A DNA stretch of 64,000 bases from Thermoplasmatota archaeon (GTDB lineage Archaea; Thermoplasmatota; Penumbrarchaeia; Penumbrarchaeales; Penumbrarchaeaceae). Positions 30,454 to 48,310 of the stretch are shown piece by piece (position 1 is the stretch's first letter; each line of letters opens with the position of its first letter). The notes below the pieces were generated by a model, which was given only the letters and a program-made list of their open reading frames with translations, searched no databases and was not told the DNA's origin. The translations under genes were made by a program, and so were the position numbers. The stretch lies in contig JARVGK010000002.1 of NCBI GenBank assembly GCA_029762535.1, positions 1-64,000 on the forward strand. The letters run 5' to 3'.

Positions 30454-30885
30454 TTATTTGTAACCAATAAAATCTTGATAATTTTTAAACCTCGAAATTT
30501 TATAATTTAAATCTTTTTTTAATATCTTAATTACCTTAAAAGGGATAAAATGAAAATCGTATTTCTCATTATTATAATAAATCATCATATGATAAACAAT
30601 TAGGTTAGCTTTTGTAGAATAATAATATAAACCGTCAATATTCTTTATATTAAATATTAAATTTTTTATTTTTATATTATCATTATTTATCGTTATAATC
30701 AAGGGTACATTTTTTTTATAAAAAAATCTAAAATATAAATATATTATTGATATAGGAAATATTATGGTAATTATTATTGATACTTTATTAGTATAAATGT
30801 AAGTTAATATAATAATTAGAAAAATAAAACATAAATATAAAAGAAAAATATCTCTTAATATTTTGAATATATTTAAACATTTCAT
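30454..30885 (-). CDS. Small AT-rich membrane protein, putative immunity protein
   Basis: Two TM segments plus a soluble domain, same architecture as 37717-38244; starts 1 nt after the stop of a cassette remnant. Confidence 0.65.
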   Translation of the reverse strand: MKCLNIFKILRDIFLLYLCFIFLIIILTYIYTNKVSIIITIIFPISIIYLYFRFFYKKNVPLIITINNDNIKIKNLIFNIKNIDGLYYYSTKANLIVYHMMIYYNNEKYDFHFIPFKVIKILKKDLNYKISRFKNYQDFIGYK

Positions 30886-30886
30886 A

Positions 30887-31099
30887 TTAATCCCTCATTT
30901 CAGTTACTTCAATCTCAATTATTAATAAACCCATGAATAAAGCTTCTTTTTCTCCAGATAATTTAAAAATATGGCTTGATAATTTTTCCACTTCAATATC
31001 GCCAGAATCTATTATATAATAAATATGCGTATCATAATATAATTTGTCGTTGGAAAGATCATATAATAAAAATGCATAATATCCATTATATTGTTTATC
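30887..31099 (-). pseudogene. Remnant C-terminal tip of a cassette protein
   Basis: My translation YAFLLYDLSNDKLYYD...IFKLSGEKEALFMGLLIIEIEVTEMRD* aligns by eye with IGFIIFDIINNKVYLD...IYTIKGENNSPYKGIGELSFVIHATELKE* of 38241-40733. Confidence 0.65.
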
Positions 31100-31223
31100 T
31101 TATACGATCTCGCCCCCTTGTATCCTCGATGCGAATTCACAGGCTTCACTTCATGATTGTACACCGCTCACCCTACCCTATTCGCTTTCAGTTGCAGGAC
31201 TCTTCGCATCTCGTTACACTCCC
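31085..31223 (-). repeat. Fragment of structured element (module A inner half)
   Basis: 31108-31223 near-identical to 41484-41599; left flank matches 44450-44470. Confidence 0.9.
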
Positions 31224-31391
31224 TGTCCGAGATCCCCGATCCCGGACCCGGCAAGATCGACTTACCCCACCCCGAGGAAGGACTTGGCCTTGGGGGATCT
31301 CCGATCCCCCTGCGATGTCCGAGATCCCCGATCCCGGACCCGGAAAGATCGACTTACCCCACCCCGAAGAAGGACTTGGCCTTGGGGGATC
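31224..31391. repeat. Tandem duplication of a 76-bp GATC-rich unit (period 92)
   Basis: TGTCCGAGATCCCCGATCCCGG...GGGGGATC at 31224-31299 and 31316-31391. Confidence 0.9.
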
Positions 31392-44713: not shown

Positions 44714-44917
44714 TAAATCTTTGATCATTTTAAAAATAATACTATCATCTTCATTATTATTTTCTCCCTTTTCTTCTTTAGTATCCATTAAAGTAAGTAT
44801 TAAAATTAAAGCAAATGAAAGACCAATTGTAACAACAGTAGTTGCACCAAAAGAAGCTCCATCGATTATAAATAATATTAAAACAATTGCCAACTGAACA
44901 GCAAATAATAAACCCAA
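44714..44917 (-). pseudogene. Hydrophobic cassette-like ORF fragment interrupted by the element
   Basis: LFIIDGASFGATTVVTIGLSFALIL; reads into the element at the 10-mer and is in frame with 42135-44156 if the element is removed. Confidence 0.55.
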
Positions 44918-45242
44918 AAAATATAAAATAAAGAAAATATTTATTAATTATATTCAATATTTGTACTTAATAGTTTAGCGCCAAGGCCATATCATTATAT
45001 TTTTAACTTTTTTTAATTTGTTATATTTTTTTTTTCATTTATTTTTGATTTTAGTATCTCTACTTTTTATTTATAATGATTAATAAAAATTTTTGTTGAA
45101 TAATGACTTATTAATTTGAATATAATGAAACAAAAATCAGTAAAATAGAACCTAATAGAATCATTAAAAATATATTTATATTACGCCTCTATATGTTAAA
45201 TATTATTTAAAATTTGGTCTATTATTAATTATCGATATTATA

Positions 45243-45491
45243 TCATTTTGAAAAAATACCTCTATAGTCTTCTTCCATATCATTCACATTTCTCTTAAAT
45301 GAACTTATTAATAATTGAGATATAAAAAATACAAGAGACCATAAAATATAAAATATTAATATTATTTTAATATTATTACCGTTCTCATATAAAATATTTA
45401 ATAGAAATTCGTATGTTAAAGATATTAATAGAAAAACATTACATAATATATGCCAAAATATCAAGAATCGATACATTGTTTTATTTTTCAT
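45243..45491 (-). CDS. Small 2-TM protein, putative immunity protein
   Basis: 82 aa; starts 2 nt after the stop of cassette protein 1. Confidence 0.68.
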   Translation of the reverse strand: MKNKTMYRFLIFWHILCNVFLLISLTYEFLLNILYENGNNIKIILIFYILWSLVFFISQLLISSFKRNVNDMEEDYRGIFSK

Positions 45492-45493
45492 AT

Positions 45494-48310
45494 TTAATCA
45501 ACTCCATAGTCATCCCAATTATCCATATAATAGTAGGAAATTATAATATTGCCAAAATCGATTAATGTAGAACTCCACATTAAAACTGAAAACCATTGAA
45601 ATGCAACTGAATTTAAAATATTTGGAATAATATTTAATATCGTAGCACCCCATGCATTATAAATTGAATATCTTCTATCTGAATTACGTAATTCTTCATT
45701 AGGAACTGATGATCGGCCATCAACATAAACATCAAAGAATTCTGCAATGATTGTGAAATCACCTGCATAGAAATATGACATTGATTGAAGATCTAATAAA
45801 AATGAACATAATGATAATATACTTCCTAACATATATATCATTTGAACTATAAAAATAGGCAATTTTTCAAATAAAGAAGGCACCGCATATCCAAGTGACA
45901 ATAAGCCGATAACTAAGAAATTTGATAACAATACTATCAAATCACCTAGTAAACTGAATATTCCTAATAAAAACCACCATTCATTCCACGATAAACCTGC
46001 AACACCAGTTTCATCCCCCCATAGTTCTTCGATTTTTTGTGGGTCATTTATCATTTCCAACTCATTAATTAAAACTTTTTCTGCTATTTCAAACTCCCGC
46101 TGCAATTGATTTAAGAGATTGTTGTAATTAATTGGATTGATTATTAACTTTTTTAAGGTATTTAATATATTACATAATGTTTCAATTACATTGTTATTAT
46201 AATGGTTCAAATCAGAGAAATCAAATGAATATATTATACTTATAACATTATTAAGTGTAACTTTATCTTTATCCACATCTATATTATTCCAAATTAAATA
46301 ATAATATATACAAGATTCTAAAACCTTTAAGACTTCTTCAATTATTATTGGTAAGAAATCAATTATTGGGGAAATTATAATACTAATATAATATAAATAT
46401 TTAAATAATTGTGAAATAAATGGATTCTCTTGCAATGTGTCTATAACTGACTTGGAAATTGATAGAGTATAATTTAAATTATTGAGCAATGTGTTAATAA
46501 CTTCAATATAAATCTGGATTACCTTAGATAATATTGGTAGTATAATAATGGCTAGTTTTACTAATTCTCCAATTATTTTCTCTATTAATATTTCAGAAAT
46601 ACTACTTACTCGCTCATATTTAAATCCTATATTCCCATTTTCATCCTCAGCAGTTATGTTAACTTCAAAGCTGTTAAACAAGGACCTCACTGCTTGTCTC
46701 GCATCCAATGTGAAATTAAATTCCTTGTTGGTAACTTCTGTAGAACATCCACAGTAGATTTTCTCATCACCAACTCCTCCGAGATGGACGTTGATCCAAT
46801 TGATTCCGAATATATCTGCGGCACTGATCTTGATCTTGACCTGATATTCCACAACGATCTTCAGATTCCATAAAGGTCCACTTGCTTCTGTGACCAATTC
46901 ATAATCTGCATCGAAATCGGTAAATGTAGGTGGTTGGCCATCTATCCCTGTTGGTGAACTTCCATATTCGTAATCTATTTCATCCTTATCGTTGATACCG
47001 TCTCCATCCGTGTCTGCTTTATTGGGATCCGTTCCGTTCTCGAATTCTCCTCCGTCATTGATGCCATCTTCATCATAATCAGATATAAGAGGATCAGAAT
47101 ATACTTGGTATTGATCTATTATCTCGTATGTATTTTCGTAGATTATGAGTACAGTCCATCTGTCAAGTTCCATTTTATCCGAAAGTCCATCTCCATCCGT
47201 ATCTGCATTTATAGCTGATGTTTCGTCTCCATCTCTTATTCCATTTCCGTTCAGATCCTCTTCGTTATCGGGGATCCCATCCCCGTCTGAATCCTTTGAG
47301 AGTGGATTGTATCCCCATTGGATTTCCGCAGAATCATTGAATCCGTCACTGTCAGTATCGTTAGAATTTGGGTTTGTTTCGGTCCAAACTTCATTATTTG
47401 AATATATTCCGTCTCCATTGTCTCCGTCTATTCTTCCATTCCTATTACGATCTTCTCCGGTAACCTGTTCCGGAGATCGCGGAGATCGCGGATCGATATA
47501 TGGACTTCTTGTAACATATTTATAATAGAACTGAGACAGATATTCCAATATTATCGCGATCTTTGCAAGATCTATTCCATCTTTTATTGTGTCGTTATCC
47601 ATGGCGCGAAGCGCCGGGGACGCGGAAAACCCTCTGCACCGCAAGATGGATCGGGTTTTTCGAACGTCAGTATCCTCATTGTACGGATCCGTCGTGCAAT
47701 GATCAAGATATGGGAAGGGACTTCCCATGTCGAGAAAATCTTTGATTTTCTCAAGATCAGGAACGAAATAACCACGGGAGAGATCGGTATCCACGGACTC
47801 AGATCCAGGCTTGTAACCCAGTTCCAGACCGTCATATAGGCCATCATCCTGGAAGCGAATGCTTCCGGGATGTGGAAAATCTATGATTTTCCGAACATTA
47901 TCCGAGTCCGGACCAGGACGAGAGACAAAAGGCAATACTCTGTCATAACGAGACATGGTCCGATAAAACAGTAAGATTACATTGACGTTGAAAATCCGAA
48001 GGATTTTTATGCCGTCAGGATCCACTGCGTTGATCATTCCGTCTTCGTCATGGTCCATCCACCATTTATTATCACCGATGGACTCGTTATAATCCCTAAC
48101 GCCATCGTCATCGCTGTCCATGTCATTGGGGGATGTCTCCTGCCATTTCTCGCCCTTGTCCCATCTGCCGTTCTGGTTCGTGTCACCCTTGATCTTGCCA
48201 TCACCATAGTGATAACCAAAGTAGTCGTCGTGTATGTAGTCCTCGCCTTTCTCATAGGATCCTCCCGGGATCCAATCTTCTCGCCGGAATGGCGAGAAGG
48301 AGGGAACCCT
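45494..48310 (-). CDS. Cassette protein 1 (apparently 5'-truncated) with five in-frame hairpin insertions
   Basis: Frame is open from 48310 (..WIPGGSYEKGED..GDTNQNGRWDKGEKWQETSPNDMDSDDDG), first ATG at 48121; no signal peptide; shared block with paralogs. Confidence 0.78.
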   Translation of the reverse strand, partial: RVPSFSPFRREDWIPGGSYEKGEDYIHDDYFGYHYGDGKIKGDTNQNGRWDKGEKWQETSPNDMDSDDDGVRDYNESIGDNKWWMDHDEDGMINAVDPDGIKILRIFNVNVILLFYRTMSRYDRVLPFVSRPGPDSDNVRKIIDFPHPGSIRFQDDGLYDGLELGYKPGSESVDTDLSRGYFVPDLEKIKDFLDMGSPFPYLDHCTTDPYNEDTDVRKTRSILRCRGFSASPALRAMDNDTIKDGIDLAKIAIILEYLSQFYYKYVTRSPYIDPRSPRSPEQVTGEDRNRNGRIDGDNGDGIYSNNEVWTETNPNSNDTDSDGFNDSAEIQWGYNPLSKDSDGDGIPDNEEDLNGNGIRDGDETSAINADTDGDGLSDKMELDRWTVLIIYENTYEIIDQYQVYSDPLISDYDEDGINDGGEFENGTDPNKADTDGDGINDKDEIDYEYGSSPTGIDGQPPTFTDFDADYELVTEASGPLWNLKIVVEYQVKIKISAADIFGINWINVHLGGVGDEKIYCGCSTEVTNKEFNFTLDARQAVRSLFNSFEVNITAEDENGNIGFKYERVSSISEILIEKIIGELVKLAIIILPILSKVIQIYIEVINTLLNNLNYTLSISKSVIDTLQENPFISQLFKYLYYISIIISPIIDFLPIIIEEVLKVLESCIYYYLIWNNIDVDKDKVTLNNVISIIYSFDFSDLNHYNNNVIETLCNILNTLKKLIINPINYNNLLNQLQREFEIAEKVLINELEMINDPQKIEELWGDETGVAGLSWNEWWFLLGIFSLLGDLIVLLSNFLVIGLLSLGYAVPSLFEKLPIFIVQMIYMLGSILSLCSFLLDLQSMSYFYAGDFTIIAEFFDVYVDGRSSVPNEELRNSDRRYSIYNAWGATILNIIPNILNSVAFQWFSVLMWSSTLIDFGNIIISYYYMDNWDDYGVD

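Follow-up and report, generated by a model that had tools for sequence, protein, structure and literature searches.

What kind of system gives rise to large archaeal genes that begin almost alike, end differently and are each followed by a small membrane protein? The question is raised by the first 64,000 nucleotides (nt) of contig JARVGK010000002.1 in assembly GCA_029762535.1, from a Thermoplasmatota archaeon of the family Penumbrarchaeaceae. We refer to this whole stretch as the window (G000:C25:1-64000; G000 is this genome, G035 and G006 are genomes of relatives, L-numbers are loci and P-numbers are homologous proteins). The source contig is 137.6 kb long and belongs to a 2.96-Mb assembly with 53.1% G+C content (GC) and 93% completeness. 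The window carries three co-oriented minus-strand genes, A, B and C, together with a decayed fourth cassette, and the best reading of this array is that it consists of exchangeable 3′-end cassettes of a giant surface protein, so far found in one Thermoplasmatota family.

A cassette comprises a trunk of ~320 amino acids (aa) with thrombospondin-type-3 (TSP3) calcium-binding loops and an immunoglobulin-like (Ig) beta-sandwich, an AT-rich hypervariable tip and its own small partner. In a relative the first cassette is fused to a signal-anchored body of ~6,000 aa, the downstream cassettes being stored copies; in this genome the parent body is gone, leaving the stub-bearing cassette C, cassettes A and B led by an upstream element (U), and the decayed cassette. 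Exchange proceeds by homologous recombination at a ~50–75-nt block at the start of the trunk, as the comparison of sister strains shows. In the mechanism that we propose, an element that ends each cassette (R) would supply the 3′ homology, and exchange may be started or propagated by a small nuclease-like gene beside R (n111). Tips would act in a membrane, where the cognate partner would neutralise or recognise it, and orphan partners that are kept would protect against neighbours. We give about an even chance to the proposal that tips and partners are polymorphic effector/immunity-like pairs acting in membranes, for contact-dependent competition or kin discrimination.

A shared trunk and a conserved block

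Gene A (cassette 38241-40733) encodes a trunk and tip of 830 aa, the tip ending in a soluble domain of ~230 aa; its open reading frame (ORF) runs over 38241-40946, and the real start is probably the ATG at 40733. Gene B (cassette 42135-44093; ORF 42135-44156, ATG at 44093) encodes 652 aa, with ~7 transmembrane (TM) helices in the tip, as predicted here and throughout by a simple hydropathy scan. Cassette C (45494-48268) is a 5′-truncated remnant of a giant parent gene: the ORF occupies 45494-48121, the frame stays open to 48268 at its 5′ end, and trunk alignment together with a match to the G035 parent divides it into a pre-trunk stub (47456-48268), a trunk (46532-47455) and a tip (45494-46531). 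The chance probability of open frames of 652–924 codons at 30–37% GC is 1e-25 to 1e-34, and with P at most 1e-25, chance does not account for such long frames in AT-rich DNA; the observation stands.

The ~320-aa trunks are 48–56% identical among A, B and C, and each starts with a conserved block of ~75 nt, the putative recombination block, at 47381-47455 (C), 43992-44066 (B) and 40632-40706 (A), all on the minus strand. The block begins GAAGATCGTAATAGG and its first 60 nt are 97–98% identical across the three genes, which upholds the near-identical block reported in a preliminary description made from the letters alone. Past the block, identity between A and C is 83–87% up to ~240 nt, while that between A and B drops to 53–70%; in C, a 117-nt in-frame insert separates DTIKDGI from EDRNRNG.

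The calcium-binding repeats and Ig-like domain named in that description were also recovered. The TSP3_bac family (PF18884, gathering cut-off 25 bits) matches A above the cut-off (27.8 bits) and B and C slightly below it (23.6 and 22.7 bits), with scores of 50.1 bits in L042 and 45.6 bits in L046, and the AlphaFold model of B, for which 35 aligned sequences were used, has high confidence over residues ~40-300 (predicted local distance difference test score, pLDDT, ~90), with calcium-loop repeats, a beta-sandwich at 186-289 and a long helix preceding an all-helical tip modelled at low confidence. Foldseek returned, at best, weak Ig/C2/PKD/CARDB-type matches for the trunk. Sequence inspection of A and B found no N-terminal hydrophobic segment, in keeping with the reported lack of a signal peptide, and each of the two genes has its own ATG and an AT-rich, TATA-like sequence. 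GC steps down from 0.33–0.41 in the trunk to 0.25–0.32 in the tip and 0.15–0.25 in the partner, compared with 0.53 for the genome; Rhs cores and tips have a similar gradient.

Cassette replacement between strains

Relatives of the array are known from metagenome-assembled genomes (MAGs) or metagenome contigs throughout, and two of these loci differ by one cassette. L042 and L045, from two samples of one study, are 98.8% identical over a 10-kb flank until the block ends; beyond it, the remainder of the trunk, the tip and the partner are all different. The L045 cassette is in turn 98.5% identical over 4.7 kb to an orphan cassette in L044, which has R and U upstream instead of the flank, and this identity starts at the first codons of the block; L042, L044 and L045 are assemblies, in which chimeras are possible. 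The sister-strain comparison is direct evidence that cassettes are replaced by homologous recombination at the block. Cassette order and content are not fixed across strains, which answers the refuting condition set in the preliminary description. The cassette upstream in L044 was considered as the one lost in L045 and was rejected, because it does not resemble the cassette of L042.

The first ~46 nt of the block are identical in at least 10 different cassettes from one sample and 94–97% identical among the three cassettes of this genome, against a between-lineage mean of 76%; copies of the block have been homogenised inside a given genome or sample and diverge between lineages. Many metagenome contigs begin ~60 nt 5′ of the trunk, as is expected where assembly runs into a repeat.

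A giant parent protein in a relative

Close homologues number ~30, all from Thermoplasmatota metagenomes and named as Thermoplasmatota, Thermoplasmatales or Thermoplasmata MAGs. The trunk is present in 8 of the 24 genomes of a single family within the GTDB class and is absent from the 13 genomes outside this family. It has no viral relatives in IMG/VR, and a viral origin was rejected on this ground.

The full-length parent sought since the preliminary description is carried by a relative. On contig C17 of G035, a gene of ~19.9 kb encodes ~6,600 aa that start with an N-terminal hydrophobic signal anchor, continue through beta-helix, FG-GAP, LamG and many TSP3 segments, and end with trunk and tip as the last ~700 aa; the junction into the trunk has no break, and the gene is followed by an ORF of 154 aa with two TM helices and by an R copy. 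The assembly of this parent contains one frameshift and one in-frame TAA (L023:2200-2270, L023:4864-4866), which may reflect errors of assembly, decay or recoding. Four further long fused forms are known (P0142, P0149, P0199 and P0219). The pre-trunk stub of C (~270 aa) matches the G035 parent directly 5′ of its trunk; a parent elsewhere in this genome was rejected, as the assembly holds no other orthologous piece.

Relative to the G035 parent, the stub has several short in-frame inserts over 47457-48016, for example a KIIDFPHPGS-type segment, and inserts occur at these positions in homologue P0002 as well. A KIIDFPHPGS-like motif is also repeated in tandem on the plus strand at 31224-31394 (repeat D11).

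Variable tips and their small partners

The three partners lie on the minus strand, directly 3′ of their large genes. Partner A (37717-38244; 175 aa, two TM helices plus a C-terminal domain, GC 0.15) overlaps A by 4 nt, partner B (41904-42134; 76 aa, two TM helices, GC 0.17) follows B with a gap of 0, and partner C (45243-45491; 82 aa, two TM helices, GC 0.19) follows C after 2 nt. The claim that each large ORF is followed by a different small membrane protein is therefore sound, with junctions of −4 to +2 nt and two TM helices in every case. A 94-aa ORF with two TM helices (44633-44917, minus strand) runs into R and looks like a partner without a tip.

The pairing extends well beyond this genome. 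Complete cassettes, drawn from 27 metagenome and 8 genome loci, number 28, and all 28 have an adjacent small ORF of 67–233 aa that starts −16 to +24 nt from the large-gene stop; these ORFs have a GC of 0.15–0.25 and mostly two TM helices, and the distribution of K and R residues suggests that the partners are N-in/C-in hairpins. Most tips have 4–7 predicted TM helices and a few look soluble. BLASTP found no mutual similarity among the tips of A, B and C, as the preliminary description had it. Across relatives, tip–tip similarity is detectable in 26 of 378 pairs, mostly at 24–30% identity and in several weak families; many tips are weakly related multi-pass membrane domains and not separate folds. 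Five of the six detectable partner–partner similarities join pairs whose tips are also similar (hypergeometric P 6e-6, or 8e-5 after dropping a duplicated cassette, values that are overstated because cassettes share ancestry). Where tips have no clear TM helices (L042, L046), the partner has a single N-terminal hydrophobic segment. The idea that tips are shared with other scaffolds was rejected: the A tip is related only to L058/P0021, its one true relative among 1.84 billion representatives, and partner A is related to the L058 partner; the L042 tip has no relative among 5.8 billion proteins of similar length.

A fourth cassette (30279-31228, minus strand) is degraded, in the order R 3′ half (31095-31228), tip tail (30886-31094), partner (30454-30885) and R 5′ part (30279-30382). 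The tip tail is a 70-aa frame of A type that aligns to the extreme C-terminus of the L058 A-type tip (36% identity, E 2.6e-7) and of A, and the partner is an intact 143-aa ORF with two TM helices. The tip has been lost and the partner kept; the tip tail and partner said to survive are indeed present, at 30454-31094.

Elsewhere in the genome, a low-GC cassette stands at the end of contig C30 (L064, G000:C30:29000-35064; ~C30:32194-35064). It starts with a C-terminal piece of a TSP3-type protein that ends in HELGHNLG, a metalloprotease-like motif (HExxH), and continues with a 242-aa ORF (GC 0.26), an n111 paralogue and an R copy.

Proposed effector/immunity pairs or resident recognition modules

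The proposal that the tips are effectors and the partners their immunity proteins draws on several features of polymorphic toxins that are found here: a surface-anchored repeat body (in G035, absent from this genome), a junction followed by an exchanged C-terminal module, and a partner that co-varies with it. The array also sits in an island with AbiE, MNT/HEPN and Schlafen-AlbA genes, and the R-ended cassette on C30 ends in an HExxH motif with a small ORF after it. The comparison with orphan C-terminal toxin/immunity arrays made in the preliminary description is thus supported in its organisation, by the parent in a relative, partner adjacency, co-variation, replacement at the block and low-GC tips, whereas toxin and immunity functions stay an analogy.

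A number of observations weigh against this proposal. None of the TM tips or partners matched a known toxin/immunity family, a catalytic motif or a structure: searches of tips and partners with Pfam, NCBIfam, PDB sequences, Foldseek and the ESM Atlas gave no toxin, immunity or bPH domain, and the scan of 1.84 billion proteins likewise gave no toxin domain. Many tips share the weak homology described above, some with a GVSFGAA-type motif, which fits divergence of a membrane domain better than an exchange of toxins unrelated to each other and cautions against assumed toxicity. Calcium-binding motifs lie beyond the TM helices in some tips, on both flanks, and suggest a resident anchor whose flanks would be extracellular. 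The orphan cassettes retain the 320-aa trunk in full, have a start codon and are preceded by a conserved element, and stand-alone forms at an apparent expression site have no signal peptide; no export route is apparent for U-led or stand-alone forms, and no secretion machinery was identified. Finally, the 93%-complete assembly of this genome contains no full-length parent, the C pre-trunk being its only match.

Some of these observations favour an alternative that we consider possible, though less probable than effector/immunity pairs, in which a giant adhesin-like protein has the tip as its resident multi-pass anchor and the partner as an intramembrane assembly or identity subunit, both forming a variable non-toxic anchor or recognition module. 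Silent cassettes would then feed a switch resembling antigenic variation or mating-type switching, for instance in virus evasion or in self definition, of which Proteus IdsD/IdsE is an example. Weakly homologous tips with mostly 4–7 predicted TM helices, extracellular-type calcium-binding motifs on both sides of the TM region in some of them and the failure to find a toxin domain are all in line with such a module, and stored cassettes with conserved 5′ and 3′ flanks and a nuclease resemble gene-conversion switching. However, viruses do not meet membrane-embedded tips, a few tips look soluble and are paired with partners that bear a signal, the intact partner kept beside a deleted tip fits immunity better, and the array lies in a conflict island with toxin–antitoxin cassettes.

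Relation to known systems

Membrane-acting toxins paired with membrane immunity proteins include the pore-forming colicins with Cai/Cei-type proteins, CdiA-CT EC93 with CdiI, and Tme/Tmi of type VI secretion systems. The present pairs resemble them in having a hydrophobic effector-like part and a small integral-membrane partner encoded directly 3′. They differ in that no sequence or fold similarity was detected, in that tips have up to 7 TM helices, and in that tips are not known to leave the producing cell.

The Rhs/YD-repeat, CdiA and MafB polymorphic toxin loci with their orphan CT-immunity arrays (Zhang et al. 2012, PMC3482391) share more of the organisation: a giant secreted or anchored repeat protein with a conserved junction and a variable C-terminal part, a small cognate gene directly 3′, orphan cassettes that keep homology at the junction, AT-rich tips, and replacement by recombination at the junction. 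In contrast to those loci, the array has neither YD/RHS repeats with their PxxxxDPxGL core end nor TPS/FHA, VENN or MafB domains, and Pfam and NCBIfam give only TSP3_bac and weak CglD-type TSP3 matches. The part that is kept is the 320-aa TSP3/Ig trunk, the tips are mostly multi-pass membrane sequences with no known toxin fold, the partners have two TM helices, cassettes are punctuated by R, U and a small nuclease gene, and the host is an archaeon.

Among archaea, the nearest precedent is provided by the VARTIG modules of Thermococcales, which are Ig-based, resemble polymorphic toxin systems and have no identifiable toxin (Makarova et al. 2021, PMC8416519); that paper, citing Makarova et al. 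2019, states that polymorphic toxin-like systems have been predicted in archaea and never characterised. Both VARTIG and the present array involve a large Ig-containing surface protein of an archaeon with a hypervariable C-terminal part shuffled by recombination and followed by variable small membrane proteins, in an organisation like that of polymorphic toxins with no identifiable toxin. The lineage and the proteins are different, with no sequence relationship seen, and what varies in the present case is a membrane tip that follows a TSP3/Ig trunk, in arrays of stored cassettes with conserved non-coding boundaries.

Boundary elements and a nuclease-like gene

The array is punctuated by two conserved structured elements, R and U, and by a small nuclease-like gene, all of which the preliminary description missed. 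R, an element of ~230–270 nt (~240), lies on the same strand as the genes and ends each cassette, at 44457-44715 after C, 41472-41707 after B and 37466-37708 after A (minus strand; nhmmer and covariance-model matches), and a profile search found 47 copies in the loci examined. In an alignment of 23 copies, a long-range helix and an outer stem can be seen, and compensatory changes are numerous, such as CG↔GC in 11:11 sequences and AU↔GC in 12:11; covarying helices are present in the copy after C. The abundance of G-U pairs and near-absence of A-C pairs point to the sense strand as the one that folds. R is conserved in sequence across genera.

U, of ~160 nt, precedes orphan cassettes and lies at 44164-44322 (5′ of B) and 40774-40926 (5′ of A), on the minus strand. 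Its outer 7-bp helix is 95% paired with four covarying positions, and further hairpins are built on GCGAAGC. Since ORF calls in homologues cross U in different frames, U is conserved as nucleotide sequence and not as protein. An HDV-like (hepatitis delta virus-like) ribozyme, defined by a nested double pseudoknot with the helix order P1-P2-P3-P3'-P1'-P4-P4'-P2', was rejected for U because its supported helices are nested (the outer 7-bp stem encloses a hairpin) and the proposed pseudoknot has no compensatory change. Neither R nor U has a match in Rfam, at the gathering threshold or at E <= 5, and these unrecorded elements, together with the linked nuclease, may reveal how archaeal accessory cassettes move.

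The spacer from R to U is either ~130–170 nt long or taken up by an antisense gene of 108–111 aa, n111. One copy (41125-41460, plus strand; 111 aa) lies between the R that follows B and the U that precedes A, and the second (37128-37454, plus strand; 108 aa) is 87–89% identical to it. The model of n111 (pLDDT 87.5) has an a-bbb-a-b-a topology and appears to have a PD-(D/E)xK-like fold, and its Foldseek and VIA-align matches are nearly all restriction-endonuclease-like, at the modest scores of Z 5–7.4 or Foldseek E of at least 0.013. The invariant residues E39, D49, D52 and E60 fit the acidic pattern of PD-(D/E)xK; the motif III lysine is not at its canonical place. In other loci this position between R and U is filled as well, and n111 stands near R across many genomes. 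In G006, of the same class and of family f7, seven near-identical n111 copies are present (e.g. C201:42519-50600 and C127:1761-8671) where the R model finds nothing, and n111 may belong to a multi-copy mobile element of its own.

A 10-mer, TAAACGTAAA, has only three copies in the window (44159-44168, 44704-44713 and 30372-30381), all of them at an R or U end. Two of these copies flank the 545-nt R–U element between C and B, whose deletion fuses the 94-aa ORF to B in frame. No flanking repeat of at least 8 nt was found at the 9 other R–U junctions, and with a repeat at 1 of 10 junctions, an intron or an insertion with target-site duplication was rejected as a general property of R–U. Fragments of R at 33758-33829 and 36029-36097 adjoin AbiEi/AbiEii (33984-35473) and MNT genes (35534-35824 and 36555-36950), which suggests that these toxin–antitoxin genes, too, were R-ended cassettes.

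Integron arrays with attC sites, including archaeal integrons (PMC9668308), also consist of co-oriented cassettes, many of them toxin–antitoxin pairs, each ending in a conserved inverted-repeat element. An integron was nevertheless rejected for the array: no integron integrase or attI is adjacent, and the sole PF00589 match on the contig (101143-101622) lies 50 kb away. R, at 230–270 nt, is also longer than attC sites, which measure 57–141 nt, and the one exchange documented here is homologous and falls inside coding sequence. A genome-wide miniature inverted-repeat transposable element was likewise rejected, because R in this genome is confined to 4 loci.

A reading that partly overlaps the others, and that we consider unlikely as a full account, is that lineage-specific R-ended units form a mobile cassette platform, moved or copied with help from n111 or a recombinase, for which trunk, tip and partner are one type of cargo beside toxin–antitoxin pairs and others; the arrangement would then reflect the spread of an element and no switching programme of the host. 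R does follow VapBC, HicAB and RelE-type cassettes in L045 and VapBC on contig C10 of this genome, and it is more widespread (17 of 24 family genomes, 0 of 13 outside) than the trunk; the adjacency of n111 in many genomes, its seven copies in G006 and the covarying helices of R and U, the latter with its GCGAAGC hairpins, point the same way. Against this, no integrase or transposase is nearby, homologous exchange at the coding block, and not at R, accounts for the difference seen between strains, and target-site duplications are missing from 9 of 10 R–U junctions. It is similarly doubtful that R, U and n111 together constitute an undescribed archaeal cassette-exchange apparatus, in which structured nucleic-acid boundary elements and a small structure-specific nuclease would programme the switching of the C-terminal membrane modules of giant surface proteins with their partners and would capture toxin–antitoxin cassettes; if true, it would parallel antigenic-variation loci or integrons in function, with unrelated parts. 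That the genes are ordinary tandem paralogues, stable and independently expressed membrane proteins from duplication with no exchange or pairing logic, is strongly disfavoured: the separate ATG and TATA-like sequences of A and B, the intact state of all ORFs and the missing parent agree with it, but strains that are 98.8% identical differ by a replaced cassette, the block has been homogenised in trunks that are otherwise ~55% identical, fused giant forms exist, and metagenome contigs repeatedly break ~60 nt 5′ of the trunk.

The surrounding island

The array lies in an island of mixed composition at 28–52 kb, which also encodes AbiEi/AbiEii, several proteins of MNT/HEPN type and a Schlafen-AlbA_2 ATPase. 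At 28694-28900 and 30063-30269, the copies of a 207-nt direct repeat (97% identical) bracket a 306-aa ORF (28893-29813, minus strand, GC 0.26) with an N-terminal membrane anchor; this arrangement resembles another inserted cassette and neighbours flavin-reductase and macro-domain genes. A repeat of ~60 nt at 44340-44400, just 5′ of the U that precedes B, recurs at 52232-52291 and on contigs C31, C47, C84 and C101; its copies are 79–88% identical and may represent a small dispersed repeat with no relation to R or U. Further along the window, a heliorhodopsin gene (55351-56175, Pfam E 1e-98) has DNA-alkylation-repair and P-type ATPase genes as neighbours.

Implications

The array provides a concrete archaeal case with a defined recombination block, strain pairs that differ by one cassette, and matched tip/partner pairs. 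If the tips act in membranes, they and their partners would form a new class of membrane effector/immunity pair; if instead they are recognition modules, they would offer a first handle on self/non-self discrimination in Thermoplasmatota.

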